Shown here piece after piece: positions 7,810 through 62,733 of a stretch of DNA of 64,000 nucleotides (positions are counted from its first letter, which is position 1; the number at the start of each line of letters is the position of its first letter). This DNA is from Candidatus Brocadiia bacterium (lineage in GTDB: Bacteria; Planctomycetota; Brocadiia; CAIUPP01), in NCBI GenBank assembly GCA_050015075.1, contig JBEKCB010000021.1, positions 24,303-88,302 on the forward strand, given 5' to 3'. The notes beneath the pieces were generated by a model, which did not search any database, was not told where the DNA came from, and worked only from the letters and a program-made list of their open reading frames with translations. A program made the position numbers and the translations under genes.

Positions 7810-7843
7810 CGAATGGCCACGACGGCCGTATTCGGTCATCGGC

Positions 7844-9736
7844 ATGACAGGGAGGTCGTTCGCCGTGGCTGCTTCTTCCGCACCGAATAAGACGGCGTTC
7901 AACAAGCCCCGTCCGGCGAGCACGCCGGCCGAGGACGTCCCGCCCGATACAGTCCCCGAAAAAGACGCGGGCGTCGCCGCGCCCGCTGAGGCGGCCGGCG
8001 ATTCCGAGTCGGGGACGAACGGCACCACGCCCGGCCGGCGCATCGGCGACATCCTCGTGGACCTGGGCTACGCCACGACGACGCAGATTGACCAGGCGAT
8101 CGAAAGCAAGGAAGACGCCTACGCCCGGCTGGGCCAGCGGCTGCTTCGCAAAGGGGTGATCAACGAAGCGCAGCTCGCCTACGCGATGAGCGTGCGGCTG
8201 GGAATCACCTTCACCGAACTGACCGAGCCTTCCGAGACGCAGGCGGCGGCGATTGCGGCGGTGCCGGACCGCATTGCGCGCCGGTACTCGCTGATTCCCC
8301 TGCGCATCGAGGGCAACGTCCTCGTCGTCGCCATGAGCAGCCCGGGCAACGTCTACGCGCTCGACGTGGTCCGCGCGGTGACCGGCTACGAAGTGAAGCC
8401 GGTGGCCGCGCCCGAACACGCCATCCGCCAGGCGCTCGGGCGCTGCTACGGGATCCGTTCCGACCTGCAGAGCAGCGCTTCCGAGCTGGCCACCACCCGG
8501 ACCGAACAGGAGATCGCCCTCAGCGCCGATGAGTCCGTCACGGACACCGAGCAACTGGTCAACGCGGCCGAGGACGCGCCGGTGGTCAAATACGTGGACT
8601 CGCTGATCAACGACTCCATCGCCGGGCGCGCCAGCGATATCCATATCGAGCCCGGCCGCAACGCGGTCTCCGTCCGCGTGCGCGTGGACGGCCGCCTGCG
8701 CCAGACGATCCCGCCGCCCAAGCAGATGCAGAACGCCGTGATCTCGCGCATCAAGATCCTCTCGCGGCTGGACATCGCGGAGAAACGGCTGCCGCTCGAC
8801 GGCCGCATGCGCGCAAAGTTCCAGGGGCGCGAGGTGGACCTGCGCGTTTCCACGCTGCCCTCGATCTACGGCGAGAAGGTCGTGCTGCGAATCCTCGACC
8901 GGGCTTCGGTGCAGCTCGACCTGAACAAGATCATCACCGACGCGAACTTCCTGGCGCACCTGCAGAAGATCCTCGCCCGGCAGAACGGCATGATCCTCGT
9001 CACCGGCCCGACCGGCAGCGGCAAGACCACCACGCTCTACGCGAGCCTTCAATACGTCAAGAACGTCACCAAGAACGTCATCTCCGTCGAAGACCCGATC
9101 GAGTACGAAGTCGAGGGCGTCACGCAGGTGCACGCGCGGCCGGAGATCGGGCTGACCTTCGCGCGCGCGCTGCGGTCCATCCTGCGGCAGGACCCGGACA
9201 TCATCATGGTCGGCGAGATGCGCGACCTCGACACGCTCGAGATCGGCATCCGCTCCGCGCTCACCGGGCACCTGGTCCTGAGCACGATCCATACCAACGA
9301 CTCCGTCTCCACCGTCACGCGTATGGTCAACATGGGCACCGAGCCGTACCTGATCGCCTCGACGCTGATCACGGCCGTCGCGCAACGGCTCGTGCGCTCG
9401 ATTTGCCCGCATTGCAAGGAAGAGTACGACCTGTCCGACCCGGTGCGGGCGCGCATGCACGAGATCCTCAAGCAGGACATTCCGAAGCGGCTCTGGCGCG
9501 GCGCCGGCTGCGCCACCTGCTCCGGGACCGGCTATCGCGGGCGCGCCGCCGTCTTCGAGTATTTCCACCTCGATGATGAGGCGAAAGAACTCGTGACGCG
9601 CCGCGCGTCGGAAACCGAACTGCGCGCCTGCCAGAGAAAGCACTCCTCCGGCAGCCTGCTCGAGAACGCCTTGCGCAAGGCCATCGCGGGAATTACCACT
9701 TTGGAAGACGCCTTCGAATTGGAGATGTCCATCTGA
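7844..9736 (+). CDS. pilB: Type IV pilus extension ATPase PilB/GspE
   Basis: MshEN-like 'RIGDILVDLG' and 'RLGQRLLRKG', 'ASDIHIEP', Walker A GPTGSGKTT, 'LRQDPDIIMVGEMRD' and tetracysteine CPHC...CATC. Confidence 0.95.
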   Translation: MTGRSFAVAASSAPNKTAFNKPRPASTPAEDVPPDTVPEKDAGVAAPAEAAGDSESGTNGTTPGRRIGDILVDLGYATTTQIDQAIESKEDAYARLGQRLLRKGVINEAQLAYAMSVRLGITFTELTEPSETQAAAIAAVPDRIARRYSLIPLRIEGNVLVVAMSSPGNVYALDVVRAVTGYEVKPVAAPEHAIRQALGRCYGIRSDLQSSASELATTRTEQEIALSADESVTDTEQLVNAAEDAPVVKYVDSLINDSIAGRASDIHIEPGRNAVSVRVRVDGRLRQTIPPPKQMQNAVISRIKILSRLDIAEKRLPLDGRMRAKFQGREVDLRVSTLPSIYGEKVVLRILDRASVQLDLNKIITDANFLAHLQKILARQNGMILVTGPTGSGKTTTLYASLQYVKNVTKNVISVEDPIEYEVEGVTQVHARPEIGLTFARALRSILRQDPDIIMVGEMRDLDTLEIGIRSALTGHLVLSTIHTNDSVSTVTRMVNMGTEPYLIASTLITAVAQRLVRSICPHCKEEYDLSDPVRARMHEILKQDIPKRLWRGAGCATCSGTGYRGRAAVFEYFHLDDEAKELVTRRASETELRACQRKHSSGSLLENALRKAIAGITTLEDAFELEMSI

Positions 9737-9782
9737 GAAAGCGGCCACGACCAATTTCCGAATCCAGACAACGGGCTAAGCC

Positions 9783-10880
9783 ATGGTGAAAGACGACTCA
9801 ACGAACGCGGCGATTAACATTGCCGCGGTGATGAAGAAGGCGCTGGACACGACGGCGTCGGACATCCACCTCATGCCCGGCCGGCCGCCGATGCTGCGGA
9901 TCAACGGCCAGCTCGCCCCGATGGCGGAGGCCCCGACCTTGACGGCGGAGGATACGCAGATGCTCGCCCGGGAGCTGGTCAACGACGAGCAGTGGGCCAA
10001 GTTCGAGAAGACGCGCGAACTCGACCTCTCCTCCAGCCACGCCGGGCTGGGCCGATTCCGGGTGAACCTCTACTGGCAGCGCGGCTCCGTGGCGATCGCC
10101 CTGCGCCTGATCCCGCACGAGATCCCGCGGTTCGAGCAACTCGGCGTGCCCCTCATCCTCCAGAAATTCGCCATGTACGATCACGGCCTCGTCCTCGTCA
10201 CCGGGCCGACCGGCAGCGGAAAGTCCACCACCCTCGCGGCCATGCTCGACCACATCAACGAGAACAGGACCTGCCACATCGTCACCATCGAGGACCCCAT
10301 CGAGCACCTGCACCGGCACAAGCAGTCCATCGTCAACCAGCGCGAAATGCACGACGATACGCTCTCCTTCCACGAGGCGCTGCGCCACGTCCTGCGCCAG
10401 GATCCCAACGTGATCCTCATCGGCGAAATGCGCGACCTCGAGACCATCCAGACCGCCCTGACCCTCGCGGAGACCGGCCACCTGGTCCTCGCCACGCTGC
10501 ACACCGGCGACGCTCCGCAGGCGTTGAGCCGCATCATTGACGCCTATCCGCCGCACCAGCAGACCCAGGCCCGCACGCAGCTCTCGCTCGTCCTGATCTG
10601 CATCATGGTCCAGCACCTGCTCCGCAAGAAAGACGGCAGCGGCCGAGTGCTGGCCTTCGAGCTGATGGTCGCTACGCAGGCGGTGGCGCACCTCATCCGC
10701 TCCGGCGAGGTCCAGCAGATCTACTCGAGCATGCAGAGCGGCATTGCCGAAGGCATGAGCACGCTCAATGCCTCGCTCATGAGACTCTACCGCGAGAACC
10801 AGATCACGCGCGAAGACATGATCCACATGTCCACGCGCCCGAAAGAGATCCTCGAGTTGCTCGGAAAAGGCCAGCTATAA
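9783..10880 (+). CDS. pilT: Type IV pilus retraction ATPase PilT
   Basis: 'ASDIHL', 'RFRVNLY', GPTGSGKSTT, 'LRQDPNVILIGEMRD', 'AETGHLVLATLH' and AIRNLIRE-like 'AVAHLIRSG'. Confidence 0.95.
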   Translation: MVKDDSTNAAINIAAVMKKALDTTASDIHLMPGRPPMLRINGQLAPMAEAPTLTAEDTQMLARELVNDEQWAKFEKTRELDLSSSHAGLGRFRVNLYWQRGSVAIALRLIPHEIPRFEQLGVPLILQKFAMYDHGLVLVTGPTGSGKSTTLAAMLDHINENRTCHIVTIEDPIEHLHRHKQSIVNQREMHDDTLSFHEALRHVLRQDPNVILIGEMRDLETIQTALTLAETGHLVLATLHTGDAPQALSRIIDAYPPHQQTQARTQLSLVLICIMVQHLLRKKDGSGRVLAFELMVATQAVAHLIRSGEVQQIYSSMQSGIAEGMSTLNASLMRLYRENQITREDMIHMSTRPKEILELLGKGQL

Positions 10881-18963: not shown

Positions 18964-19296
18964 TCAGGGAGAGACGACGCCGATAACAAGTCCCTCGCGC
19001 CGGGCGATATCGAGAATGGGCCGACCGCCTTCGGTCTCCCATTCGCGTTCTCCGCAGGGAATCGGTTCGATGCGCGTGTCGGCCAGCGCTCGCGCGATCC
19101 AGAGCCTTTCGATCAGCCGGCGATTTCGCGGGCCGTCGAACTCGCGGGCAATCACGACCACGTCAATATCGCTGGTCTCCTTCGCCTCGCCGCGCGCGAA
19201 GGAGCCGAAGAGGACGGCCCGGCTCGCATGAATTCCTTCCTCGGGAAGGACACGCAAGTAGTGCCGTATGGCCTCTACAACAGGGACATCAACCAT
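18964..19296 (-). CDS. Minimal nucleotidyltransferase (MNT), antitoxin-like
   Basis: 'LFGSFARGEAKETSDIDVVV' (GS-x10-DxD). It overlaps the HEPN gene. Confidence 0.88.
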   Translation of the reverse strand: MVDVPVVEAIRHYLRVLPEEGIHASRAVLFGSFARGEAKETSDIDVVVIAREFDGPRNRRLIERLWIARALADTRIEPIPCGEREWETEGGRPILDIARREGLVIGVVSP

Positions 19297-19652
19297 TGAA
19301 GGCCCCTTTCAGCCTTGGCGAGTTCCGCTTGAGCCTCAGTCCTGTCCATGAGCGCCGATACCATGTCGGGGTACCGGCCTTCAAGCTGGTGCGCGTCGAA
19401 GGCCAGCAGGAAGTCGCGTTGCCAGAGTTCAAGCGGCAATGCGGCTTTCTCGGCCAATCGGGTCAAGTTGTGAATTTTCGGAGGGACCTCGCACGTCTTC
19501 CTCGTCACATGGGCCTTCAGGGCCTTCTCAATGGCCAAATGCGCAAAGAAAAGCGCGTGCCGGAAATGACCCTTTTCAAGCAAGGTCTTCGCAGCCTCCA
19601 GGTCTTCCTGGCTGCTTTTCTTCCAATAGTCAATCTGCTTCTGGACGTCCAC
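19275..19652 (-). CDS. HEPN domain protein
   Basis: 'EDLEAAKTLL', 'HLAIEKALKA', 'KIHNLTRL' and 'RYPD'. It is paired with the MNT gene; GTG start. Confidence 0.88.
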   Translation of the reverse strand: MDVQKQIDYWKKSSQEDLEAAKTLLEKGHFRHALFFAHLAIEKALKAHVTRKTCEVPPKIHNLTRLAEKAALPLELWQRDFLLAFDAHQLEGRYPDMVSALMDRTEAQAELAKAERGLQWLMSLL

Positions 19653-20968: not shown

Positions 20969-22306
20969 GTGAAACCCATAGACACTGGACCAACCGCGGA
21001 AATTCCCCAACGGATGCCATTTCTTCTATCGAATCAGGAGCTACAACCCCTTGTAGACAAAAGCAATGCGGAATATCTTGCTTGGGATAAGTTTAGACGA
21101 CACCCGATGCCACAAGGGGTCACTGCTGAGGAAGCGTGGTACTTTGTCAAGTTCGCCAGAAGTATGAACAGAAAGTATTTGCCGATAAAGGATACGCTAG
21201 GACGAACATTTCACTATTGGTTACCCGGCTCTTTCCAAGCCCAGTTACATCGAATTGACATGCACGCGGGCATGAGCATGGCCGCAACGCCGGAATCGGA
21301 AATGCTGCGCGCGAACCGCGAAAGGTACTTGGTTAGCTCGCTTATGGAGGAGGCCATCGCCTCGAGCCAACTGGAGGGCGCCTCCACGACTCGCCGCGTC
21401 GCGAAGGAGATGCTGCGAACTCAGCGGGCGCCTCGAAATCTGAACGAACGGATGATCCTGAATAATTACCGAACCGTTTTGCGGATTAGAGATTTGGTTA
21501 ACGAGAGGATGTCCATCGAGCTTCTTTGCGAGCTTCAGAAAGAGATAACGGACCAAACACTCAAGGATGCATCCGCCAGCGGACGGCTCCGCATCCCGGC
21601 GGAGGACGACATCGCCGTGGTTACTTCCGAAGGCGAAGTAGTCCATCAGCCGCCTCCAGCGGCGATGTTGCCTGGGCGTTTGAAAGTCTTCTGCGATTTC
21701 GCAAACGAAGAGCCGGATGATACGGGTCTAACATTTCGTCATCCGATTGTCACCGCGATCGTTCTGCATTTTTGGCTCGGTTATGAGCATGCGTTCGTGG
21801 ACGGCAACGGGCGAACCGCGCGGGCGGTGTTCCTATGGTACGTGTTGAAGCACGGATACTGGCTTATGGAATTCTTGCCGATTTCCACGATTATCAGGAA
21901 ATCGCCTTCGCAATATGGGCGCGCCTTCATCCTTGCCGAGCAGGACGAGAACGACATTTCCTATTTCCTCCAATACAATCTTCGAGCAATCAACCTGGCG
22001 CTGGACAACTTTCTTGCTTACGTGCGCGAGAAACAGCAGGAACTGAATGTAGTGCAGGCGGTGGCCGCGTTTTCGAGTGACATGAATATACGCCAACGGT
22101 CGCTGATCGCCCACGCGCTCAAGAATCCGGGCTTCTCATACACGGTCCGGTCGCATATGACGTCGCAGGGCATTTCGATAGTGACGGCCAGGAACGATCT
22201 TGTCGGATTGGCGCGACGGGGCCTGCTCGAAGAACGCCGCGAAGGGAAGAAGACGGTCTGGATTTCTCCGCCGGACCTGGCGACTCGACTGAAGCGGCCG
22301 ACCTGA
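20969..22306 (+). CDS. Fic family protein (class II) with C-terminal winged HTH
   Basis: Fic motif HAFVDGNGRTAR, inhibitory motif SSQLEG and C-terminal 'SIVTARNDLVGLARRGLL'. It is more AT-rich than its flanks. Confidence 0.92.
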   Translation: MKPIDTGPTAEIPQRMPFLLSNQELQPLVDKSNAEYLAWDKFRRHPMPQGVTAEEAWYFVKFARSMNRKYLPIKDTLGRTFHYWLPGSFQAQLHRIDMHAGMSMAATPESEMLRANRERYLVSSLMEEAIASSQLEGASTTRRVAKEMLRTQRAPRNLNERMILNNYRTVLRIRDLVNERMSIELLCELQKEITDQTLKDASASGRLRIPAEDDIAVVTSEGEVVHQPPPAAMLPGRLKVFCDFANEEPDDTGLTFRHPIVTAIVLHFWLGYEHAFVDGNGRTARAVFLWYVLKHGYWLMEFLPISTIIRKSPSQYGRAFILAEQDENDISYFLQYNLRAINLALDNFLAYVREKQQELNVVQAVAAFSSDMNIRQRSLIAHALKNPGFSYTVRSHMTSQGISIVTARNDLVGLARRGLLEERREGKKTVWISPPDLATRLKRPT

Positions 22307-24374: not shown

Positions 24375-24836
24375 ATGGCACAAGTTCGACGTGATGATCT
24401 TCCGGAGGCGCAGCCGACGGCGGGCGTCACTCACGCGCAGGTCGCGAAAATCTGGGCATGCGCGCACGACCTGGGTTTGGACCGCGAGATGCTCTACCTG
24501 CTGGTGCCGCGCGGCTCGATCAGCGCGCTCTCGCACCGCGAAGCGTCGGAGCTGATCGAGCACCTGGTGGAACTCGGGGCCAGGCGCACCGCCGAGCAGC
24601 CGATAGCGGCGGGCGATTTCGATCCGAACGCGGCGACGCAGGAGCAGCGGAACTTCATCCACTTCCTTTTCGGCCGCGTGGGCTGGATCGGTTCTCCGGC
24701 CCGCATTCGCGGCTTTCTGAGGAAATTCGCCGGCGTGGATACGGTGGAGGCGATCCGCGACCGTAAGCGCGCCAGCGCGATCATTGAGGCGCTGAAGGCG
24801 ATCCACCGGCGGCAGAGGAGCGCGAAAAGCGCCTAA
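24375..24836 (+). CDS. Phage Mu GemA/Gp16 (DUF1018)-like small protein
   Basis: 'AQVAKIWACAHDLGLDRE...SISALSHREASELIEHL' and 'ATQEQ..I..L...GW...RIRGFLRK..GVD....ASAIIEALK' match the two-lobe GemA pattern. GGAGGT RBS and TATACT -10 upstream. Confidence 0.65.
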   Translation: MAQVRRDDLPEAQPTAGVTHAQVAKIWACAHDLGLDREMLYLLVPRGSISALSHREASELIEHLVELGARRTAEQPIAAGDFDPNAATQEQRNFIHFLFGRVGWIGSPARIRGFLRKFAGVDTVEAIRDRKRASAIIEALKAIHRRQRSAKSA

Positions 24837-25086: not shown

Positions 25087-25488
25087 GCTTCGGCCTCCGG
25101 CAATGCGAGAGAAATGCTCACCCAATTGATTTTACCGCCTTGTCGCGGGGGATGGTTTTTCCGCTGTTAAAGAGGCGCGAGAGGTCGTCGCGGCATATTG
25201 AGAGCGATAGAGCTGCTCGCGGAGCAGGAGGAGCGGAAGGAGCAACCGGAGGCGAAGGAGCCTGAGCCGAGCGAGTGACCGTCTTTCTTTGGCGTAGGCA
25301 TCAGTCATCGCTGTCGGGCGCTCGCCTTCGTCAGGCCGCATAGGATTACCTAGGCGGTCACGCGCAACTCCAGAGGCATGCGACGGTCCTTTGCCGATGA
25401 CAAAAAGCGTATGGGCTGCCGGATACCCACAGGGCCGTATATTCCACAGGCCTCGTGCCGACCTGTTTTAATTACCTTGCGCCAGAGC

Positions 25489-25517
25489 TGAACCTTTTGC
25501 GGTTGAACTGGGATATA
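25489..25517 (+). promoter_or_regulatory. Candidate ECF-sigma autoregulatory promoter
   Basis: TGAACC-N15-GGGATATA; a second copy lies at 26116-26144. Confidence 0.65.
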
Positions 25518-25535
25518 ATCCCTGGCTGAACAAAC

Positions 25536-26165
25536 ATGCAGAAACCCAATGCCGAACTCAATGCGGATTCCCTGATTCCTCGCGCCCTGGCGGGTGAGCG
25601 TGAGGCTTTCTGCGAGCTTGCGCGACAGCACGAAGCGAGGCTCTATCGTCAGGCGTTTGGACTCTGCCGTAATCAGCACTTGGCGGAGGACCTGGCGCAA
25701 GAGACGCTGATCGAGGCGTGGAAGGGGCTGGCCAGGTACAATGGGGCGTGCAGGTTCTCCACGTGGCTCTACGCAATCCTCCTGCACCGGCATCAGAAGT
25801 CACAGCGAAGGAACCGGTCGGTGCTTCGGCTGTTCCTGGGTATAGAGCGACGAAGAGGCTCATCGCGCGAATGGGAGCTATCCGCAGGCGCCGATGCCGA
25901 CCCGGCCGAGGCGGCCTGGCGCGCGGAAGCAGCGGAGAAGCTCCGGGCGGATATCGAGGCGCTGCCGGAGGACGCGCGGGAAGTCATCCGGTTGCGCTTC
26001 TTCGCCGGCGCTTCGCTGAGCGAAATCTCCATCGCGCTCGGCATTCCGCTGGGGACCGCGAAGTCTCGGCTGCATTATGCCCTGATCCGCCTCCGCGAAA
26101 TGTGTGATCCGCAATTGAACCCATCCGCCCCGACCGGGGATTTACTATCGGAGGGAAGAACATGA
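25536..26165 (+). CDS. ECF sigma factor (sigma24 family)
   Basis: 'AEDLAQETLIEAW', 'RFSTWLYAI' and 'SLSEISIALGIPLGTAKSRLHYA'. Confidence 0.93.
   Translation: MQKPNAELNADSLIPRALAGEREAFCELARQHEARLYRQAFGLCRNQHLAEDLAQETLIEAWKGLARYNGACRFSTWLYAILLHRHQKSQRRNRSVLRLFLGIERRRGSSREWELSAGADADPAEAAWRAEAAEKLRADIEALPEDAREVIRLRFFAGASLSEISIALGIPLGTAKSRLHYALIRLREMCDPQLNPSAPTGDLLSEGRT
26116..26144 (+). promoter_or_regulatory. Second ECF promoter copy, inside the sigma gene's 3' end and upstream of the anti-sigma gene
   Basis: TGAACC-N15-GGGATTTA. Confidence 0.6.
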
Positions 26166-26779
26166 CGTGCGACCGATACAAAGAAGCGATTTCACTCCTC
26201 GCCTGCGGCGAGTTGCCGGCAGGCGACCGCGTCCCGGTGGAGCGGCATCTGGCCGAGTGCGCGAGTTGTCGAAGCGACTACGAGGCGCTGCAGCGCCTCT
26301 GCGGCCGGATCAGGAACCTTGCCGAACAGGACGACCTAGCCGAGGCACCTGGCGGGCTGTCCGGACGGCTCGAGGAATCGCTTCGGCCTGCAGCACACAC
26401 CGTCCGCTGGGCGGCGCTCGCGGCGGCGGCGTGCGTCTTGATCGGGCTGGCGGTATGGTTGATATCGAGCGCGGAGACGAACGACAACCGGGCCCGCCAG
26501 AAACAGGGGCCAGCCATCGGCGTCATCTCCACGCCGCATCCTTTCGTCGCTACGACTGACCTGCCGCCGGCCAGTTGGGCCGCGTATTACCAGGCGTGGC
26601 TGCAATCACCGGAGACGCTCGACGGAATGCTGGCGCGTGACGCTGCAGCGCGGTTGAAGCCCGAAAGGAACCTGGCCGGCCTGAATGTGCGTAGCTTGCT
26701 CCAGACCATGAACCATATTGAGGAGAAGTCCAATGAGAACCACAGTGTGCGTGGCTGCGGCGTTAGCTCTGTTGTGTAG
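26162..26779 (+). CDS. Anti-sigma factor with zf-HC2 domain and one TM helix
   Basis: 'MTC...HLAECASC' (HxxxCxxC) and TM 'WAALAAAACVLIGLAVWL'. ATGA-coupled to the sigma gene. Confidence 0.88.
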   Translation: MTCDRYKEAISLLACGELPAGDRVPVERHLAECASCRSDYEALQRLCGRIRNLAEQDDLAEAPGGLSGRLEESLRPAAHTVRWAALAAAACVLIGLAVWLISSAETNDNRARQKQGPAIGVISTPHPFVATTDLPPASWAAYYQAWLQSPETLDGMLARDAAARLKPERNLAGLNVRSLLQTMNHIEEKSNENHSVRGCGVSSVV

Positions 26780-27869
26780 CGCAGGAGCAGTTTCGGCGCA
26801 GGAAAGCAAGGCGCCGCCATCCGACCTCGGTCGCAACGCGGCGCTGACCTATTGGCGCGCCTTCGCCGCGTTTCCGGAATTGACAAAGGAGGAGTCCAGT
26901 ATCGTCGCCGCGTACCCCCCGGGTTTCGAACCGAAGTCAACGCCGGAGCAGAGGGCCGACCTGGCAAAACGATTGACCAGGGCGTTAGAGCTGATGCACG
27001 AAGCGTCACAAATTCCGCAGTGCAACTGGGGCATTGACTACGAAAAAGAAGGACCCAATGCCGACCTCACGTATCTGGCCAAGAGTCGTGACCTCGGCAG
27101 GGCCGCGGCCTTTCGCGCGCGGTACTTCTGGCAGGAAGGAAAACGCAAGGAGGCGGCGGAAGACCTGCGTGCCGCAGTCATCTTGGCGCGTCAGGTTGGA
27201 AACGACGGACATGATACGCAGATCGCAGTACTCGTACAGATTGTCACTGAGTCAATTGTAGATAACAACCTGGCGGTGTTGATGACCGATCGGGAATCGG
27301 CGGACGTCCTCGCAAATGGCCTAGGGGACCTCGTCAACGGGTCCGCAGCCCCACTCATGAGAAACGCGATCCTCACGGAGAAGAAGGTGTGTCTTCCGTG
27401 GATGGTATCCCTTGTTACGCAAGAAATGAGCGATCCGGGAGCAGCGGCGAAGCGGCCCGATTTCACCCCTGAGGCGATACGGCAGTGGATGGACGAGCTT
27501 GGAAGACAATATGACGAGGTGGCGGCTATCTTCGATTTGCCGTTCCAGGAGTTCCTGGCCACGAGGCCGGCGCTGGAGGAAAAGATCAAGGCCAGCAAGA
27601 ACCCTTTCGCAGAGTCTCCCCTTTCCTCACTGAAAGGCGCGCGCGATGAAGAGGAGAAATACCGCGTTCAGTGGGCGATGGTCCGGGCCGCCATCGAGAT
27701 CAGGCGCGAAGGGGAAGCAGCACTGCAGAAGGTCCTGAACCCGGCCGACGGAAAGCCGTTCGTCTACACCGCGTTGGAAGGCGGTGCGTTCGAACTGAAA
27801 TCAGCGCTGCCGATCCGCGACAAACAGGTCGCCATGACCTTCGGGCGCGCGCCGGCAAAGAAAAAGTAG
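26733..27869 (+). CDS. Secreted all-helical hypothetical protein (planctomycete type)
   Basis: GAGGAG RBS and signal peptide ending 'VSA|QE'; 'NAALTYWRAF', 'CNWGIDY' and 'NPADGKPFVY'. Confidence 0.75.
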   Translation: MRTTVCVAAALALLCSAGAVSAQESKAPPSDLGRNAALTYWRAFAAFPELTKEESSIVAAYPPGFEPKSTPEQRADLAKRLTRALELMHEASQIPQCNWGIDYEKEGPNADLTYLAKSRDLGRAAAFRARYFWQEGKRKEAAEDLRAAVILARQVGNDGHDTQIAVLVQIVTESIVDNNLAVLMTDRESADVLANGLGDLVNGSAAPLMRNAILTEKKVCLPWMVSLVTQEMSDPGAAAKRPDFTPEAIRQWMDELGRQYDEVAAIFDLPFQEFLATRPALEEKIKASKNPFAESPLSSLKGARDEEEKYRVQWAMVRAAIEIRREGEAALQKVLNPADGKPFVYTALEGGAFELKSALPIRDKQVAMTFGRAPAKKK

Positions 27870-27988
27870 TGCCGTCCGGCGAGAACGAGTTTTGCCGAGA
27901 AGAGGCGCAGACCGGACGCGGATGCCTTGCTCTCCCGCGCGCAGACGAACGACGCAGAGGACGATGGACCTTCTTGAGGAAAATTACA

Positions 27989-28276
27989 ATGAGAACCACC
28001 GCGTGCGTGGCTGCGGCGTTAGCTCTGTTGTGCAGCGCGGGCGCAGCTTGCAGAGCGCGGACATCCGACCTCGGTCGTAACGCGGCGCTGTTCTATCGGC
28101 GCGCCTTCGCAGCGTTTCCTGAAGTGACAGAGGAGGAGTCCAGTATCGTCGCGGCGTACCGCCCTGGTTTCGAACCGAAGTTAACGCCGGAACAGAGGCC
28201 CGATCTCGCCAGACGATGGGGCAGCTTTCACGACCTGGCGCGGTATGGGATTCTCAGAAGCGAATGGGCGGTTTAA
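27989..28276 (+). pseudogene. Truncated paralog of the 26733 gene (5' part only)
   Basis: 27974-28218 aligns closely with about 26718-26975, including the RBS, with an in-frame deletion. Similarity then ends abruptly. Confidence 0.8.
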
Positions 28277-28458
28277 AAGGAGGCACCCTCCACCTTACGT
28301 GCGGGAGTTCCGCAGCTTGCCCGGGTCCCTGTTAGCTCAAGTTCAGCGCTACCGCTTCGAGCTGAATGTTTTTTGCTGGCCCGGCAGTCAGGGTTTCTCC
28401 GCAACGGCAGAGGGCGCGTGTCCTCCTTATACTTCCTGCATGGGGGTATTCCCCGTTA
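28275..28458 (-). ncRNA. Candidate structured ncRNA (rod-like hairpin; 6S-like or CsrA-binding sRNA)
   Basis: Perfect sigma28 promoter upstream, no ORF, nested end-to-end helices with G-U pairs on the minus strand, and a 3' GGAGG/CCTCC hairpin plus TTTT. Confidence 0.5.
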
Positions 28459-28464
28459 CCTTGA

Positions 28465-28491
28465 TTATCGGCCGCGATGCGGCGGGATTTA
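28465..28491 (-). promoter_or_regulatory. Sigma28 (FliA/WhiG)-type promoter
   Basis: The minus strand reads TAAA-N15-GCCGATAA, an exact consensus match. Confidence 0.7.
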
Positions 28492-28552
28492 GGAAAAATC
28501 GAGAGCCTTTCGGGCCGCCCGGGACGCCGGCGAGAACGCGCGTCCGCGCGAT

Positions 28553-28582
28553 TTGACCGACGCCGCCGCCGGCCCCTATAAT
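28553..28582 (+). promoter_or_regulatory. Sigma70 promoter giving a probably leaderless mRNA
   Basis: TTGACC-N18-TATAAT; ATG at 28589, with 6 nt between it and the -10 box and no SD. Confidence 0.55.
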
Positions 28583-28588
28583 CCCGGC

Positions 28589-29860
28589 ATGACGACGACC
28601 GACATACTCATTCAGCGGGCTCCCGAGCTTGCCGCCATCATCATCCTCCTGAGTTGTTCGGCCGTATTCAGCGCGGCGGAGACTGCGCTTTTCTCGCTGA
28701 CCCATGAGGACTTGCGGAAGCTCAGTCTTTCTTCGTCCCGGTCGAGCCGCGCCATCCGGTCGCTGCTGCGGGACCCGCAGGCGCTGCTGGCGGCCGTGCT
28801 GCTCGGGAACATGGTCGTCAACCTGAGCATCTACGGCCTGAGCATCCTCATCGCCATCCAGCTCGCGGAGGTCTCGCACTTTGCCGCGGCGGTCTGCGGC
28901 GTCGTCTCGCTGCTGGCGGTCATCCTCCTGACCGAGGCGAGCCCCAAAGGGATTGCGGTCGGCCGGCCGGTGGAGGTCGCGCATTGGGTTGCGTGGCCTC
29001 TGCTCCAGTTTTTCCGCGTCGTCCGCCCGGTCAGCAACCTGATTCGATTCGTGGCGCGGGAGTGCACGGACGCGCTGACCCGGCGCTTCAGCCCGGCGCC
29101 GTACGTCACGCGCGGCGAACTCCAGACGCTCATCGCCATGGCCGAGCAGCAGGGAACCCTGAGCGGCCAGGCGCGCGGGATGATCGAGCAGGTGGTGGAC
29201 CTCACGAACCTGCGCGCCAGGGAGCTGATGACGCCGCGCGTGGATATGCCGCTGTTCAACGTGGCCGCCGGCGCCGAAGGGTTCTCCGAGCTGGTGCAGA
29301 TTGACCGCCAGGAACGCGTGCTCGCCTATGAGGGATCGGCCGATAATGTGGTCGGCATGCTCTTCACGCGTGACGTGCTGCTCCATCCCGAGGCGGAGAT
29401 CCACAGCCTGCTCCGGCCGGTGAGGTTCGTGCCGGAGACGCAGCCGGCCGAGGCGCTGCTGCGTTACTTCACGCACGCGCGCGATTCCGTCGCCATCGTC
29501 GTGGACGAGTACGGCGGCACGGCCGGGCTGGTGACGATCGAGCATATCCTCGAGGAGGTCGTCGGCGAGATCCGCGAGAAGCCGCGCGCCGAGGAGCCGG
29601 CCGTCCGGAGGCTCGATGAGGACACCTACGTCCTGGCCGGGAACCTGAGCACGCGCGACTGGCGGCCGCTGCTGGGCGCCGGCTTCGACCCGGCCGGCGT
29701 CGAGACGCTCGGCGGATTCGTCATGTCGCTGCTCGGCCGCGTCCCGAAGGAAGGCGAAAGCGTCGAGAGGCGCGGGCTGCGTTTTGTCGTCGAGAAGATG
29801 TCCGGCCGCCGCGTCGCACGCGTTCGAGTCCAGCGGCTTCGGCGAGAGGGCGAGGCATGA
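28589..29860 (+). CDS. CNNM (DUF21)-CBS-CorC/HlyC metal transporter family protein
   Basis: 'FSAAETALFSL', 'LLGNMVVN', 'EASPK', 'MTPRVD', 'VVDEYGGTAGLVTIEHILEEVVGEI' and 'ETLGGFV'. Confidence 0.92.
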   Translation: MTTTDILIQRAPELAAIIILLSCSAVFSAAETALFSLTHEDLRKLSLSSSRSSRAIRSLLRDPQALLAAVLLGNMVVNLSIYGLSILIAIQLAEVSHFAAAVCGVVSLLAVILLTEASPKGIAVGRPVEVAHWVAWPLLQFFRVVRPVSNLIRFVARECTDALTRRFSPAPYVTRGELQTLIAMAEQQGTLSGQARGMIEQVVDLTNLRARELMTPRVDMPLFNVAAGAEGFSELVQIDRQERVLAYEGSADNVVGMLFTRDVLLHPEAEIHSLLRPVRFVPETQPAEALLRYFTHARDSVAIVVDEYGGTAGLVTIEHILEEVVGEIREKPRAEEPAVRRLDEDTYVLAGNLSTRDWRPLLGAGFDPAGVETLGGFVMSLLGRVPKEGESVERRGLRFVVEKMSGRRVARVRVQRLRREGEA

Positions 29861-30834
29861 TGACCGCGCTGTGGATCGCCCTGTCCATCCTCGTGGCGGC
29901 ATTTTACGCCGCGGCGGAGACGGGCGCCTATCGCCTCAACCGAATCCGGCTTCACGGCGAGGCGAAACACGGGCGGCGTACGGCGGCGCTGACCGAAAGC
30001 GTGGTCGCGGACATGGAACGATACGTCTGCATGACGCTGACGGCGCACAACACGGCGGTTTACTGCGGCACGGTGTTCTTCACGGCGCTGGTCGCCCACT
30101 GCCTGCGGGGGCAGCGCGAGCTGGTGGTGGAGCTCATCAGCACGGTAACGCTGTCGCCGGTGATGCTGATCTTCGGCGAGGTGGTTCCCAAGAGCGTGGC
30201 CCAGGTGCTGGCGGACCCGCTGATGCGCTGGTCGAGCCCGCTGCTCTGGCTGACGAACAAAGCGCTCTGGCCGGTGGTCACGATGCTGCTCGGCCTGGTG
30301 GCGTTCTGGCGGCGGCTGCTCGGAGGCCGAGCCGAGCCGCGCAAGACCGTCGTCACGGCGCAGTACCTCGGCACGCTGCTTTCGGCGGGCACTCAGGAAG
30401 GCGTGATCACGCCGCAGCAGGACGTGATCGTCCGGAACATCCTGCAATTGCGGGGCCGGCCGGTGCGGGAGATCATGACGGCGATGTCGCACGTGCAGAT
30501 GGTCCCGGTGGATGCGGACCCGCAGCAGGCGCGGCAGGAGATCGCGCGCTTCACCCACGCGCGGCTGCCGGTCTACGAGGGCGACCGGTCGAATGTCGTC
30601 GGGAGTTTGCGGGTCCTCGATTACCTCTGCGGCGATGAAGGCGGCGACATTCGCAAGCTGCTTCGCCCGCCGCTGTTCCTCAACGCGGAGACCGGCGTGG
30701 ACGAGGCCTTCCGCCGCCTGCAGGAAAGCGCCCAGAGCATGGCCGTCGTCGTAGGCGCGCATGACCGCGCCGTCGGCGTCATCACGATAGACGACCTGCT
30801 GCAAGGCGTTTTCAGCACCCTCGGCTCGTTTTAG
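29857..30834 (+). CDS. CNNM (DUF21)-CBS protein lacking the CorC domain
   Basis: 'FYAAAETGAY', 'IFGEVVPKS', 'ARLPVY' and 'GVITIDDLL'. ATGA-coupled to the previous gene. Confidence 0.9.
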   Translation: MMTALWIALSILVAAFYAAAETGAYRLNRIRLHGEAKHGRRTAALTESVVADMERYVCMTLTAHNTAVYCGTVFFTALVAHCLRGQRELVVELISTVTLSPVMLIFGEVVPKSVAQVLADPLMRWSSPLLWLTNKALWPVVTMLLGLVAFWRRLLGGRAEPRKTVVTAQYLGTLLSAGTQEGVITPQQDVIVRNILQLRGRPVREIMTAMSHVQMVPVDADPQQARQEIARFTHARLPVYEGDRSNVVGSLRVLDYLCGDEGGDIRKLLRPPLFLNAETGVDEAFRRLQESAQSMAVVVGAHDRAVGVITIDDLLQGVFSTLGSF

Positions 30835-30858
30835 GCCCGGATAAGCCAACCGGGTTGC

Positions 30859-30998
30859 TTGACAGCGGCAATTAGGCCGTATAATCTACGGCTGCGAAGG
30901 CCGGAAGCCCTCTGTCAATGCACCATTTCCCGGGGCATGGCCGATACGGCAGCGAGATTCCGAAGTGGTGCGCTTAGCCTTTTGCAGGAACCACACCG
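30859..30998 (+). promoter_or_regulatory. Sigma70 promoter plus structured 5' leader (riboswitch candidate)
   Basis: TTGACA at 30859; TATAAT/TAATCT at 30880-87. Helices 30892-30901/30977-30987, 30920-29/30962-71 and 30940-43/30947-50. Confidence 0.45.
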
Positions 30999-31814
30999 AT
31001 GCTGGACCCGGGTACAGTCGGCCTGGCGACCGCGGTGTTCGTCGCGTCCTCGGTCGAGTGCGTGGAGGCGTTCACCATTGTGCTCGCGGTGGGGATGACG
31101 CGAAGCTGGAAGTCCACCATCGTCGGCTCGATTCTGGCCCTGCTGGCGCTGACCGTGATTGTAGCGGTCGCCGGGGTCGGCCTGCGCAACACCATTTCAC
31201 CATCGCTGCTTCAGTTGATCATCGGCGCGCTGCTGCTGGTCTTCGGCTTGCAATGGCTGCGCAAGGCCATCCTGCGCGAGAGCGGCCTGAAGGCAAAGCA
31301 TGACGAGGCGAGCATCTACCGCCGCGAACAGGAAGAAGCGCGCCAGGCGAGTCACCTGATGCGCGGCGGCCTCGACTGGTTCGCGTTCGTCGTATCCTTC
31401 AAGGGAGTCTTCCTGGAAGGGCTCGAGGTCGTCTTCATCGTGATCACGTTCGGCCTGAGCGCGAGCGTGCAGAATCCGCACAGCATGTTCATCGCCTCCA
31501 TGGCCGCGCTGGCCGCGTTCGTGGTGGTGTTGATCGCGGGCGTCATGGTCCACAAGCCGTTGTCCTCCGTGCCGGAGAACCTGCTCAAGTTCGGCGTGGC
31601 CATCCTGCTGTGCACCTTTGGAACGTTCTGGTCCACGGAGGGCCTGGGCTACTTCACGGCCGGCCACGGAAGCCTTGAGTGGCCGGGCGGCGAATGGGCC
31701 CTGCTGGGCGTGCTCCTGTCCTGGATCATCGTATCGTCTCTCTTCGTTCGCGCACTCCGTCGCCTTCATCCGGCCGTGGCCTCGGCCCCGGCCGTCACGG
31801 GAGCGGACAAATGA
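30999..31814 (+). CDS. COG4280-like membrane protein (LysE superfamily, related to FTR1/GDT1), probable metal transporter
   Basis: Two intramembrane ExxE repeats ('VECVEAFTIV', 'LEGLEVVFIV') and about 7 TM helices. Confidence 0.7.
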   Translation: MLDPGTVGLATAVFVASSVECVEAFTIVLAVGMTRSWKSTIVGSILALLALTVIVAVAGVGLRNTISPSLLQLIIGALLLVFGLQWLRKAILRESGLKAKHDEASIYRREQEEARQASHLMRGGLDWFAFVVSFKGVFLEGLEVVFIVITFGLSASVQNPHSMFIASMAALAAFVVVLIAGVMVHKPLSSVPENLLKFGVAILLCTFGTFWSTEGLGYFTAGHGSLEWPGGEWALLGVLLSWIIVSSLFVRALRRLHPAVASAPAVTGADK

Positions 31815-32029
31815 AATATGTACTCGGCTTCCTGCGGTTCTGGTATGACTTCGTCATCGGCGACTGCTGGCAGATCGCCGCGGGCGTGGTCGTCGTGCTC
31901 GGGTGCGGGGCGTGGCTGGCGCACTCGCAGATCATCCGCCCCGGCCTGATCCCTCCGGTCGCCGGACTCGGCGTCGTCCTGGTCGTCGTCATCAGCCTGC
32001 TCGCGACCGCGCGAGAGCGCGCACGGTAG
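31811..32029 (+). CDS. Small two-TM membrane protein
   Basis: MKYVLGFLRFWYDFVIGDCWQIAAGV...; ATGA overlap with the COG4280-like gene. Confidence 0.7.
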   Translation: MKYVLGFLRFWYDFVIGDCWQIAAGVVVVLGCGAWLAHSQIIRPGLIPPVAGLGVVLVVVISLLATARERAR

Positions 32030-32075
32030 GCGCCGCAATCCGGTTCGACGGGGGAAAATGGGGCGAATCGAACCT

Positions 32076-33344
32076 ATGTCCCAACCGCTATCCGCCTGGC
32101 GGCGAGCCATGGAGTTCCTCGGCCTGAAACGCAGCATGGCCGGCATGCTGGGCATGGTCATCCTCGTCGGAATGGGCGAGCAGATCGGCGAGCGTTTCCT
32201 CCCGCGGTACATCGAGGTGTTGTCGGGCGGCGCCGTCGGCAAAGTCCTCACGGTGACGAGTATCCTCGCCATCGGCTTGCTCGCCGGCATGGACGACCTG
32301 CTTTCGGCGCTCTACTCGTTCCCCGGTGGGTACCTCAGCGACCGGCTGGGCACGAAGCGCGCGCTCCTGGTTTTCAACTTCCTCTCCATGTTCGGGTACG
32401 TCGTCATCCTCGTCATTCACACCTGGTGGGCGGTGCTGGTCGGGGCGGCGTTCTTCATCTCCTGGTCGGCCATTTCGCTGCCGGCGACGATGGAGATCGT
32501 GGCGAAGGTAGTGCCGAAGAACAAGCGCGCCATGGGCGTTTCGATGACCTCGCTGATCCGGCGCGTCCCCAAGACGCTCGGGCCGGTCATCGGCGGCACG
32601 TTCATTGCGCTCTGGGGCATAGACCGCGGCGTGCGCGCGGCGTTTGTGGCGGCCATCGCGCTGGCGCTCGTCGGGATGATCGTGCAACAACGCTTCATCG
32701 AGGACGACCGGCTCCGCCCCGGCGATCCGCCTCGCCCGAAGGCGGAGAAAAATCCGTTCAGGCTCTATCGTGAAATGAGCCCCCAACTGCGCAATCTGCT
32801 CATCTCCGACATCCTCATCCGCTTCTGCGAGCGCATTCCCGATTGCTTTGTCATCATCTGGTGCACCGTGCAGATCCTGCGGCCGGTCACGGATTTCACT
32901 TTCGGCTGGCTCTCGGCCGTCGAGCAGGTGACCGCGGTGCTCTGCTACATCCCGGTGGCGCACATGGCCGACCGGTTCGGGAAGAAGCCGTTCGTGGCGG
33001 TCACCTTCGGCTTCTTCACGCTCTTCCCGCTGATGCTCATGTTCGCGCAGTCGCTCTGGGCGCTGGTGCCGGTGTTCGTCCTGCGCGGCCTGAAGGAGTT
33101 CGGCGAGCCGTCGCGCAAGGCGCTCATCATGGACCTGGCCCCGGAGGACCGGAAGGCGGCCATGTTCGGGCTGTACTACCTGATCCGCGACGTCTTCGTG
33201 TCGCTCGCGGCCTTCGGCGGGTCGCTGCTCTGGCTGATCGGCCCGAGAGTCAACCTGCTGGCCGCCTTCGCCTTCGGCGTCATCGGCACGACCTGGTTCG
33301 TGCTGAAAGGACGCGACCTGTCGCGCGCTCCAGGAGCCGCGTGA
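32076..33344 (+). CDS. MFS transporter
   Basis: Motif A 'GGYLSDRLGTKR' and 'MADRFGKK'; about 12 TM helices. The start could be 32058. Confidence 0.9.
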   Translation: MSQPLSAWRRAMEFLGLKRSMAGMLGMVILVGMGEQIGERFLPRYIEVLSGGAVGKVLTVTSILAIGLLAGMDDLLSALYSFPGGYLSDRLGTKRALLVFNFLSMFGYVVILVIHTWWAVLVGAAFFISWSAISLPATMEIVAKVVPKNKRAMGVSMTSLIRRVPKTLGPVIGGTFIALWGIDRGVRAAFVAAIALALVGMIVQQRFIEDDRLRPGDPPRPKAEKNPFRLYREMSPQLRNLLISDILIRFCERIPDCFVIIWCTVQILRPVTDFTFGWLSAVEQVTAVLCYIPVAHMADRFGKKPFVAVTFGFFTLFPLMLMFAQSLWALVPVFVLRGLKEFGEPSRKALIMDLAPEDRKAAMFGLYYLIRDVFVSLAAFGGSLLWLIGPRVNLLAAFAFGVIGTTWFVLKGRDLSRAPGAA

Positions 33345-33482
33345 CCAGGTTCTGACCCGCAGCGCAGCCGATTGCCGAGGCGCGAAAATCCGGCCCTCCT
33401 TGCATCTTTCCGTTGCAAGCGATACATTCTCTTTCGACCGCGGCGGTGACCGCGGCATGATCTTCAAGACGAGAGCAGCCGG

Positions 33483-34874
33483 ATGACGCGCGAGAGTGCG
33501 ATCCTCGAACGAAGAAATGGAACCCGGAACAAGCTTCTCGCCGGGGACCGTCAAGCACATGACTGGTACCGTTTTGTTCTTTCGTTCCCGCCGCACCTTG
33601 TCCGCGACTATCTCCAGCGCTTCCGGGTGAGCGCGGGACAATGTGCACTCGATCCGTTCTGCGGCACTGGAACCACACTCGTCGAATGCAAGAAACTGGG
33701 GATACGCAGCGTCGGCGTCGAGGCCAATCCCATGGCTTGGTTTGCCAGCCGCGTTAAAACGAATTGGAGCGGACGCCCGGAAGGACTGCGCCAGCACGCA
33801 GAATTCGTCGCCGACAGGACCTTGGAGCGTTTGCGGGCCGACGGGATTGAGGACGATCCATTCTTTCGCGCCCCCAGACGAGCCCGTACCGCCTTGCGCG
33901 GATTGGCGCCGGAGCAAGAAAGTTTACTCCTCAGCGGCTCCATCAGCCCGATGCCGTTACACAAGACTCTCGTCCTCCTGGAAACTCTGCAAGAGCACCG
34001 CGATGAACGCTTTGACGATTACGAGCGGTTGGCCCTCGCCAAGGCCCTTGTTCAGACCATCGGCAACTTGCATTTCGGGCCGGAAGTCGGCGTAGGACCG
34101 GCCAAGCCGGACGCGCGCGTGGTTTCCTCCTGGCTGGAAGGCGTCAACGCTATTGCGAATGATCTGCGCGAGTTGGCGCGCTTGGAGCGGACTCCGGCAA
34201 CCGTTCACAACGCGGACTCGCGTCAGATTGCAGACCTGCTTCAGCCCGAAAGCGTTGACGCCGTAATTACGTCGCCCCCTTACCCGAACGAGAAAGACTA
34301 CACGCGCACGACCCGGTTGGAGTTGGTCATCCTCGGGTTGATTCACAGCAAGGAGGAATTGCGTAATCTCAAGAAAGGCCTTGTGCGTTCCAACACGCGC
34401 AGCGTGTACGTCGCCGACGACGACGATCAGTGGATTCGTGACCATCCGGAAATCAAGCGAATCGCCGACGCGATCGAGAGCCGACGTATCGAGTTGGGCA
34501 AGACCTCCGGTTTTGAACGGCTTTATCCGCGCGTGACCAAGCTCTACTTCGGCGGCATGGCGCGACATCTGGCCGGATTACGCCAAGTCCTTCGACCGGG
34601 CGCGCAACTGGCCTATGTCGTCGGGGACCAAGCATCGTACTTGCGCGTCATGATCCGCACGGGCAAGATACTCGCGGAAATCGCGCAATCACTCGGGTAT
34701 GAATTGACCGGCATTGACCTCTTCCGCACGCGACTCGCGACGGCAACGCGGGAGCAGTTGCGCGAGGAAGTCGTATTGCTTCGCTGGCCGGGGACCGTGG
34801 CAACAACATGCGTCCGGGAGCGTCCGGCAAAATACCGACGGAAGCTACGAAGAACAGGGAAGAAACGGAGATGA
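33483..34874 (+). CDS. Amino-DNA methyltransferase (probably N4-cytosine, alpha-type motif order)
   Basis: Motif I 'LDPFCGTGTT' precedes motif IV 'TSPPY'. Confidence 0.88.
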   Translation: MTRESAILERRNGTRNKLLAGDRQAHDWYRFVLSFPPHLVRDYLQRFRVSAGQCALDPFCGTGTTLVECKKLGIRSVGVEANPMAWFASRVKTNWSGRPEGLRQHAEFVADRTLERLRADGIEDDPFFRAPRRARTALRGLAPEQESLLLSGSISPMPLHKTLVLLETLQEHRDERFDDYERLALAKALVQTIGNLHFGPEVGVGPAKPDARVVSSWLEGVNAIANDLRELARLERTPATVHNADSRQIADLLQPESVDAVITSPPYPNEKDYTRTTRLELVILGLIHSKEELRNLKKGLVRSNTRSVYVADDDDQWIRDHPEIKRIADAIESRRIELGKTSGFERLYPRVTKLYFGGMARHLAGLRQVLRPGAQLAYVVGDQASYLRVMIRTGKILAEIAQSLGYELTGIDLFRTRLATATREQLREEVVLLRWPGTVATTCVRERPAKYRRKLRRTGKKRR

Positions 34875-35686
34875 GCAAGCAGAACCGATACGAGGATATC
34901 ATTGAGGCCATCTTTCGTTCGCATTCCATAGTACCAAGCGGATATAAGGAGTTCGAGTTCGGCCGAGACGAAATAGAACGTCAAGCGAAAAAGCTTCGCA
35001 TCCAGCTGCCCAAAAACCTGGGCGACCTCATCTATAGTTTCCGCTATCGGACAGAGCTGCCGCCCTGGATTCGTCATTATGCGCCTGAAGGAAAGCAGTG
35101 GGTTATTCGCCCTGCTGGGCGCAGCCGGTATCGCTTCGCGCTCGTCAGCGCGGCGCGTATCGAACCACATCCGCTCGCGCCCGAGATAAAGATACCCGAT
35201 GCGACTCCGGGAATCATCGCCAGGCATTCCCTGTCTGATGAACAGGCGCTTCTGGCTAGAGTACGATACAACCGCCTCCTGGACATCTTCTGCGGCGTTG
35301 CAGCCTATTCGCTTCAAAGCCACTTGCGCAGTTCAGTTCCGGAAATGGGACAAGTAGAGACAGACGAAGTTTACGTCGGCATTCATCGCCGCGGAGCGCA
35401 GTACGTCTTTCCGGTTCAGGCGAAGGGCAAAAAGGACAAGCTCAGTCTTATCCAGATCGAGCAAGACCTCGCCCTTTGCAAGCTGAGATTCCCAGGCTTG
35501 ATTTGCCGGCCTATCGGCGCACAGTTCCTTCCAGACCAAGGCATCGTCCTGTTCGAGTTTCGGGAAATGGAGGGGGTGGTCAAGCTGATTGCCGAAGAAC
35601 ACTATCGTCTTGTTCCCTCCGATCAAATCACACAGGAAGACCTCAAGGCTTACGCGGCGCTTGTCGGCAAAGACCAGCTACAATAG
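34871..35686 (+). CDS. Putative type II restriction endonuclease (PD-(D/E)xK)
   Basis: ATGA-coupled to the MTase; 'GQVETDEVYVG...PVQAKG' catalytic-like motif; more AT-rich than its flanks. Confidence 0.75.
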   Translation: MSKQNRYEDIIEAIFRSHSIVPSGYKEFEFGRDEIERQAKKLRIQLPKNLGDLIYSFRYRTELPPWIRHYAPEGKQWVIRPAGRSRYRFALVSAARIEPHPLAPEIKIPDATPGIIARHSLSDEQALLARVRYNRLLDIFCGVAAYSLQSHLRSSVPEMGQVETDEVYVGIHRRGAQYVFPVQAKGKKDKLSLIQIEQDLALCKLRFPGLICRPIGAQFLPDQGIVLFEFREMEGVVKLIAEEHYRLVPSDQITQEDLKAYAALVGKDQLQ

Positions 35687-35773
35687 ACTCCACCGCTGTT
35701 GAAAGATTCCGCCCAACCCGCTAGATTCTTGTATCCGGCCGCGCCTGCGCCGGCTTTATCTCAAGGGTGAGAA

Positions 35774-62705: not shown

Positions 62706-62733
62706 GCTTGCTCCCTTGGGTTAGTCGAACGAC

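Follow-up and report, generated by a model that had tools for sequence, protein, structure and literature searches.

Small RNAs (sRNAs) whose transcription depends on the flagellar sigma factor sigma-28 (FliA) have previously been described in Escherichia coli and Campylobacter (PMC10578931, PMC11187230; these and the other sources below are cited for the excerpts that concern the systems named). Those of E. coli are derived from untranslated regions (UTRs) of flagellar or other mRNAs (PMC10578931), and the sigma-28-dependent sRNA CJnc170/FlmR of C. jejuni is described as a post-transcriptional regulator (PMC11187230). Here, we report the analysis of a 64-kb stretch of the genome of a Candidatus Brocadiia bacterium (Planctomycetota; contig JBEKCB010000021.1), hereafter called the window, which contains on its minus strand a candidate RNA gene of about 184 nucleotides (nt). 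A first reading of the letters of this stretch (the sequence-only reading) had placed here an RNA of about 185 nt without an open reading frame (ORF), rod-shaped, transcribed from a perfect sigma-28 promoter and either 6S-like or a sponge for the protein CsrA. Our comparisons indicate that the element is probably a stand-alone, sigma-28-dependent gene for a structured non-coding RNA.

The systems closest to the element also include RNAs that are bound by CsrA and RNAs that are bound by RNA polymerase. The leader of C. jejuni flaA is sigma-28-dependent, carries two GGA stem-loops of which the second lies over the ribosome-binding site, and titrates CsrA (PMC4894983), and Bacillus subtilis hag has two CsrA sites, one of them over the Shine-Dalgarno (SD) sequence (PMC7652899). 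Canonical 6S RNA has a "large 5'-central bulge" between its closing stem and a long apical stem (PMC8414754). The element shares traits with each of these, and its similarities and differences are set out below after the evidence for the RNA gene itself.

Promoter, predicted fold and conservation

The sigma-28 consensus TAAA-N15-GCCGATAA is matched exactly on the minus strand at 28491-28465, as the sequence-only reading had claimed; this is the single occurrence in the window and the pattern appeared in 0 of 100 dinucleotide shuffles. When two mismatches were allowed, 2 matches were found in the window against 1.46 expected, which is at chance level, and therefore the exact match alone is remarkable. 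Transcription from sigma-28 promoters usually starts 6-9 nt after the -10 box, and this spacing was used to predict the start zone (Table 1). The octamer GCCGATAA as such occurs five times in the window (18979, 21181, 28465, 29339 and 52803) against 1.38 expected, with 1 of 100 shuffles reaching five; among these copies only that at 28465 has TAAA 15 nt upstream.

Relatives of the element were sought by using the neighbouring CorC gene as an anchor. The genome scan with CorC gave one close locus, L001, from a Candidatus Brocadiia metagenome-assembled genome (CorC 95% identical), and four Phycisphaerae loci (30-33% identity), all four without the element and without the promoter pattern. In L001 the element lies at 2850-3064, on the side of CorC where the window also has it, and synteny between the two loci extends over positions 28215 to 33496 of the window. 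For further carriers, P0001, the translation of a spurious plus-strand ORF across the element, was used as a query among 5.8 billion protein clusters, and two of its nine candidates proved to be carriers on metagenome contigs, namely P0003 (86% identity) and P0004 (72% identity). A profile search with three sequences found the same two carriers only, among 3021 candidates, and a search for shorter proteins gave 8 candidates, none significant. The full HMMER scan of 1.84 billion representatives returned the same two carriers and two long proteins (P0005 and P0006); P0005 was rejected as a carrier because it is a chance match to a repeat protein. At the DNA level, a covariance model of the element (R1) run on the window and L001-L005 (150,311 bases) recovered the two known copies only, apart from one further match of 6.7 bits with an E value of 5.5 in the same 150,311 bases, and no match was obtained by blastn in plasmid and phage collections.

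P0003 and P0004 cease to resemble the window directly past the residues that cover the U tail, and the translation of P0004 runs on through the CorC promoter and start. The element is thus apparently present in at least four genomes, always beside CorC and with a variable far flank, as judged from two DNA sequences (window and L001) and two carriers known as translations only.

The promoter match is exact in L001 as well, which places both promoters in the sigma-28 class. Between the two genomes 0 of the 12 positions in the promoter boxes changed, compared with 6 of 15 in the spacer, and 10 of the next 42 nt further upstream of the T-rich stretch differ. The residues over the -10 and -35 boxes are also invariant in the translations of P0003 and P0004 (LIIG over the -10 box). 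From these boxes, transcription of the element would be carried out by the sigma-28 holoenzyme.

The predicted RNA begins with a 5' module of about 35 nt, comprising a G-C hairpin, a weak hairpin that would expose a GGA and the motif AAGGAGG, and continues as a 150-nt rod of about 50 pairs in which AAGGAGG pairs with CCUCCUU as the outermost helix. The structural details of the sequence-only reading were recovered throughout. Both small hairpins were located on the minus strand, and the SD-like AAGGAGG has no ATG, GTG or TTG 5-13 nt behind it (the next start codon, a TTG at 28404, opens an ORF of 43 amino acids (aa)). The five nested helices all recur in the minimum-free-energy (MFE) fold; there, GCG and UGC form three additional pairs, and the closing helix is moved one base into the U tail. 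Both the A-rich bubble and the T4 tail proposed earlier are present; the tail directly follows a G+C-rich helix in a terminator-like arrangement, which a consensus scan did not call (see below), and termination may occur at U4.

The rod of the window has a predicted energy of -64.4 kcal/mol on the minus strand (z -2.57, with 2 of 200 shuffles as good) and that of L001 -69.8 kcal/mol (z -4.68, 0 of 200). The plus strand also folds (window z -2.14, 4 of 200; L001 z -3.72, 0 of 200), but with less stability than the minus strand, the difference being 1.6 kcal/mol in the window and 5.3 kcal/mol in L001. In the 5' module, hairpin 1 exists in L001 as a 4-bp G-C hairpin with its register moved by one base. 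The hairpin-2 segment has an unpaired probability of at least 0.9 in both genomes and is the most variable segment of the element; its GGA is nevertheless present in L001 and, to judge from the translation, would be retained in P0004 through a 1-nt shift. The second base of the apical tetraloop is U in the window, A in L001 and, as deduced from the translation, C in P0003.

As a neutral reference, 35 of 252 fourfold-degenerate CorC sites (13.9%) differ between window and L001. The RNAalifold consensus of the two sequences contains 53 pairs, hairpin 1 included, none of which is broken, and its 13 differing columns are distributed as 11 among 53 unpaired and 2 among 100 paired columns. Both changed paired columns keep pairing (U-A to U-G, and the reverse). 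Paired columns are therefore more conserved than unpaired columns (Fisher p 0.0002) and than fourfold sites (0.0004), a contrast that is inflated by deriving the structure from the same two sequences. For this reason the count was repeated on the MFE structure of the window only, in which differences fall on 4 of 98 paired positions and on 10 of 54 unpaired ones (p about 0.005-0.006). The two pairs that appear broken in this structure adjoin bulges, and the fold of L001 itself accommodates them through a slip of one base. In the rod of P0004, at least five base changes can be deduced from the amino acids, of which three would be unpaired, one would turn G-U into G-C and one U-A into U-G. Selection thus appears to act on the helices and the promoter boxes, with spacer, loops and bulges drifting.

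The same changes bear on the strand. Four invariant G-U pairs would be A-C mismatches if read on the plus strand, which agrees with the strand-specific G-U pairs seen in the sequence-only reading, and the changes at column 145 (L001) and column 163 (P0004), both U-A to U-G, are compatible with the minus strand only. These observations, like the folding energies, favour the minus strand as the functional strand. No ORF of 40 aa or longer is common to the window and L001 on either strand; L001 has two AUG ORFs of 16 and 30 codons, for which the matching codons of the window are ACG and AUA. The observation of the sequence-only reading is thus confirmed, and its interpretation as a non-coding, structured RNA gene of the minus strand behind a sigma-28-class promoter is supported.

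Table 1. Predicted features of the candidate RNA gene and its promoter (window coordinates)
Feature	Position	Strand	Remarks
Candidate RNA gene	~28458 to 28275	-	~184 nt, ends predicted
T-rich stretch upstream of -35 box, UP-element-like (putative function)	28492-28510	-	1/19 differs in L001
-35 box TAAA	28488-28491	-	exact sigma-28 (FliA/WhiG-class) consensus; 0/4 changed in L001
-10 box GCCGATAA	28465-28472	-	exact consensus; 0/8 changed in L001
Transcription start zone, predicted	28456-28459	-	6-9 nt past -10 box, from sigma-28 spacing
Hairpin 1	28443-28454	-	GGGG 28454-28451 / loop AAUA / CCCC 28446-28443
Hairpin 2, weak	28429-28441	-	AUGC 28441-28438 / loop AGGAA / GUAU 28432-28429
SD-like AAGGAGG	28422-28428	-	5' half of closing helix; pairing probability near 1
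Irregular rod	28275-28428	-	~50 bp, 154 nt
A-rich 5' bulge	28364-28377	-	14 nt, faces 5 nt at 28329-28333; 2/14 differ in L001, about neutral rate
Apical stem-loop	28334-28363	-	7 bp, 4-nt bulge, 4 bp, tetraloop GNAG
CCUCCUU then U4 (28278-28275)	28275-28283	-	3' half of closing helix, terminator-like end

Possible function and alternative explanations

A decoy for CsrA is the mechanism that we favour, and among the readings compatible with the 5' module it is the most specific. Expression of the RNA would accompany that of the late flagellar genes, and the 5' module would imitate the leader of a flagellin mRNA, which combines a sigma-28 promoter with two GGA motifs, one in a hairpin loop and one within the Shine-Dalgarno sequence. 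By binding the translational repressor CsrA, the module would make the RNA a decoy that tunes CsrA-controlled flagellin synthesis, and the rod would act as terminator and nuclease-resistant scaffold and would gate access to the second GGA. Any action in trans is proposed here by analogy, and the statement as a whole, mechanism included, is put forward tentatively and is on balance doubtful. It is supported by the GGA in the loop of hairpin 2, which is accessible in both genomes and is retained despite the most variable surroundings in the element, and CsrA is reported to be widespread in Planctomycetota (PMC13443453).

Comparison with the flagellin leaders of C. jejuni flaA and B. subtilis hag shows what the element has in common with them, namely a sigma-28-class promoter, small hairpins, a GGA in a loop and a second one in the SD or SD-like box. 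The 5' module thus has the design of a flagellin-leader-type CsrA site, though the SD-like GGA is base-paired in the full-length RNA. The second GGA lies 10-13 nt downstream of the loop GGA, compared with 21 nt in the flaA leader. Unlike these leaders, the element is followed by no coding sequence, flagellin or other (there is no usable start codon and no ORF shared with L001), its SD-like box is locked with its own 3' end, and it has one loop GGA.

The sequence-only reading had listed several GGA motifs and had suggested a CsrA sponge. Eight GGA motifs were counted in the 187-nt RNA, against 3.6 ± 1.9 per 187 nt of the window, a mild enrichment, as 2.8% of such windows reach 8. The sponges of the CsrB/RsmZ type resemble the element in being non-coding, and it likewise has GGA above background; theirs are many and located in loops (PMC4894983), whereas those of the element are mostly helical. 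Of the eight, only that in the loop of hairpin 2 is clearly exposed in both genomes, two are partly so and the rest lie inside helices. What stands of the sponge proposal is therefore the number of motifs and the flagellin-leader-like 5' module, whereas the many exposed sites of a CsrB/RsmZ-type RNA are absent.

Several points weigh against this explanation, some against the RNA gene and others against the decoy, and the circularity of the consensus structure noted above is the first of them. The DNA comparison consists of two genomes that are close relatives (CorC 95% identical). None of the 53 pairs changed on both sides between window and L001 (a shuffle control is uninformative with two sequences), and hence strict covariation is absent; of the homologue and covariation check proposed with the sequence-only reading, homologues and constrained helices were obtained and compensatory pairs were not. 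In P0003, the 5' half of the apical stem is kept and its 3' half (residues 28-36; A2 columns 119-137) is completely changed, with promoter, leader and 5' rod strand matching; the divergence reflects either indels that re-register the hairpin or a faulty 813-nt contig. The minus-strand end was not called by the consensus terminator scan, as a tail of only four U falls short of the 5 T in 8 bases that the scan requires. As for the decoy, the structure of hairpin 2 is poorly preserved in L001, and its site is without the ACA that forms part of the consensus of CsrA sites obtained by SELEX (PMC7652899). The SD-like GGA has an unpaired probability of 0-0.2 and is buried in the closing helix, which leaves only one GGA site free. 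Gene annotation of the window and of L001 shows none of fliA, csrA, fliW or the flagellar genes. Lastly, selection falls on the rod, to which the decoy model gives an auxiliary role only.

Among the other explanations, the one that survives best is a sigma-28-dependent base-pairing sRNA, whose 5' end, hairpin-2 loop or A-rich bulge would pair with flagellar or other mRNAs and whose rod would provide stability and termination. We regard this as possible and rather unlikely. A rod of 50 pairs is unusual for base-pairing sRNAs. Unpaired positions of the element change at about the neutral rate or above it (11 of 53, with 35 of 252 for fourfold sites), so that no conserved seed stands out. In favour of pairing, L001 has the same first 8 nt past the predicted start, and the translations of P0003 and P0004 preserve them at the amino-acid level. 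The start regions of 46 genes of the window, no flagellar gene among them, were compared with the RNA and none pairs with it above shuffled controls. The sigma-28-dependent sRNAs found in the literature act by pairing or are described as post-transcriptional regulators (PMC10578931, PMC11187230), and those of E. coli (MotR and others) and of C. jejuni (CJnc170/FlmR) are, as is proposed for the element, under FliA control within the flagellar hierarchy. Unlike the UTR-derived sRNAs of E. coli, the element stands alone between the CorC/CNNM gene and an unrelated convergent gene; its 150-nt rod, its lack of any Rfam hit and its host phylum also set it apart from these sRNAs.

A second explanation is that the RNA binds a protein through its shape, either as a 6S-like mimic of an open promoter for the RNA polymerase holoenzyme or as a rod for a double-strand-specific protein such as RNase III. 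The pattern of conservation speaks for it, with helices selected and loop sequences not, and so does the resemblance to canonical 6S RNA in size (about 185 nt), irregular rod, a large bulge in the 5' strand (14 nt opposite 5 nt) and conservation of shape over sequence (PMC8414754). A product RNA could start from the C two bases inside the bulge and would have GG at positions 4-5 and an adjacent A in the template in both genomes, which is a weak indication in G+C-rich sequence. Against the 6S-like version, neither RF00013 nor any other 6S family was matched at E ≤ 10 when 501 nt and 196 nt around the element were searched. The apical arm comprises 31 nt with only 11 pairs, compared with about 50 nt per strand in the closing arm, and the 14-nt bulge is therefore not central. 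The element also has an additional 5' module, and to our knowledge neither a 34-nt 5' extension nor a sigma-28 promoter is a trait of 6S RNA. The 6S-like proposal of the sequence-only reading is accordingly not supported, and the protein-binding explanation as a whole is quite unlikely. With gathering scores, Rfam 15 gave no hit in the whole window, 6S included; at E ≤ 10 around the element nothing relevant was matched, and the low-scoring matches consisted only of two archaeal small nucleolar RNA models inside the CorC start region and one vertebrate long non-coding RNA model. The element matches no Rfam family and fits no RNA family described so far.

Less credence still is given to an element that has no function in trans, that is, a long bidirectional terminator or insulator separating the convergent gene from the RNA promoter, or an imperfect palindrome at the DNA level resembling a miniature inverted-repeat transposable element (MITE) or an enterobacterial repetitive intergenic consensus (ERIC) sequence, with a fortuitous or vestigial promoter match. 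Both strands fold well, the rod adjoins the stop of the convergent ORF, and a breakpoint lies 60 nt beyond the 3' end of the rod. However, repeats of the MITE/ERIC type occur in many copies, whereas the covariance model found a single copy per genome within 150,311 bases. The G-U pairs fall on one strand only, with no A-C oppositions in the consensus structure, the promoter boxes have stayed exact with a spacer that diverged between them, and the same site beside CorC is occupied in four genomes with the other flank varying.

A decaying remnant is very improbable. It would be what is left of a late flagellar gene, for instance flagellin, after deletion of the coding region, namely promoter, leader and terminator, a case that the sequence-only reading had itself named as its refutation. 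The sigma-28 promoter, the GGA hairpin and the strong SD-like box with nothing to translate would all be expected of such a remnant, and the neighbourhood has been rearranged. Yet changes are 3 to 7 times rarer at paired positions (2-4%) than at fourfold sites (13.9%), the ORF-less unit has the same ends in four genomes, and no trace of a flagellin N-terminus was found in any frame. A flagellin leader may still be the evolutionary origin of the element, while selection on the helices makes a mere leftover unlikely. Finally, a leader peptide or small protein, encoded by a short ORF within the rod's 5' strand and controlling terminator formation by its translation, is equally improbable: L001 does have an AUG just after the SD-like box, with a stop in the bulge after 16 codons, and the changes deduced for P0003 and P0004 would create the same stop, but the window has ACG in place of this AUG and no stop, the AUG is 2 nt from GGAGG, the SD-like box is paired, and there is nothing downstream on the minus strand to regulate.

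Location of the gene and its neighbourhood

The element occupies a 312-nt intergenic gap. On one side lies a plus-strand ORF of 95 aa (27989-28276), whose stop codon (28274-28276) is overlapped by the U4 tail, and on the other side a CorC/CNNM transporter gene begins on the plus strand at 28589, with a second CNNM gene and a GDT1-like gene behind it. As a minus-strand RNA between two plus-strand genes, it is convergent with the 95-aa ORF and divergent from CorC. The CorC/CNNM gene has a near-consensus promoter of its own, TTGACC-N18-TATAAT (28553-28591, plus strand), which ends 6 nt before the ATG at 28589, and this layout is kept in L001 and, as seen in translation, in P0004; it suggests that the CorC mRNA is leaderless. 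With this promoter, the rod is not needed as a leader of CorC. A plus-strand riboswitch or leader for the CorC/CNNM and GDT1-like genes was therefore rejected, as the minus strand also folds better and the G-U pairs and A-to-G changes fit the minus strand only.

The rearrangement breakpoint 60 nt past the 3' end of the RNA borders a 3-kb island specific to the window (25151-28215), which replaces the GNAT acetyltransferase gene of L001 (2150-2792). The island encodes an extracytoplasmic function (ECF) sigma factor, a zf-HC2 anti-sigma factor, a 383-aa unknown protein and the 95-aa ORF, whose tail preserves the last ~20 codons of the GNAT gene. On the other side of the element, a DNA-methylase-like ORF (33483-34874) is located in a segment (33496-35718) that is missing from the otherwise collinear L001. 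Further upstream are a HEPN/nucleotidyltransferase pair (18964-19652, minus strand), a Fic-domain protein (20969-22306, plus strand) and a lone phage-Mu GemA-like gene (24375-24836, plus strand), the last of which is also present in L001 (1418-1882); this region may be variable or prone to mobile DNA. The window also contains a PilM/secretin/T2SS-F/T2SS-E cluster (type IV pilus or type II secretion) and a DUF1501/PSD1 (DUF1553) gene pair (1788-10880 and 61380-63967), a pair that is typical of Planctomycetota and marks the window as planctomycete.

Implications for Planctomycetota

No paper on the sRNAs of Planctomycetota was found in a limited search of open-access text. The kind of RNA proposed here is itself known, and it is the architecture that would be new among sRNAs under the control of an alternative sigma factor, here sigma-28. 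Should the element turn out to be only a lineage-restricted sRNA, it would be a modest addition to the catalogue.

The element would mean more as a sigma-28-programmed, protein-sequestering RNA of Planctomycetota, either a CsrA-titrating RNA descended from a flagellin leader and devoid of an ORF or a rod that mimics promoter DNA for the polymerase holoenzyme, although we consider this unlikely at present. The CsrA antagonists described outside the Gammaproteobacteria, in the excerpts cited, are the FliW protein or an mRNA leader (PMC7652899, PMC4894983). If the protein-sequestering reading is true, the expression of late flagellar genes would be coupled to a dedicated decoy RNA, and the element allows one to ask whether CsrA systems of the FliW type also use RNA decoys. 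Planctomycetota have a motile-sessile life cycle, and a flagellin-leader-like RNA without a gene would offer a handle on the post-transcriptional control of the switch between its two states.

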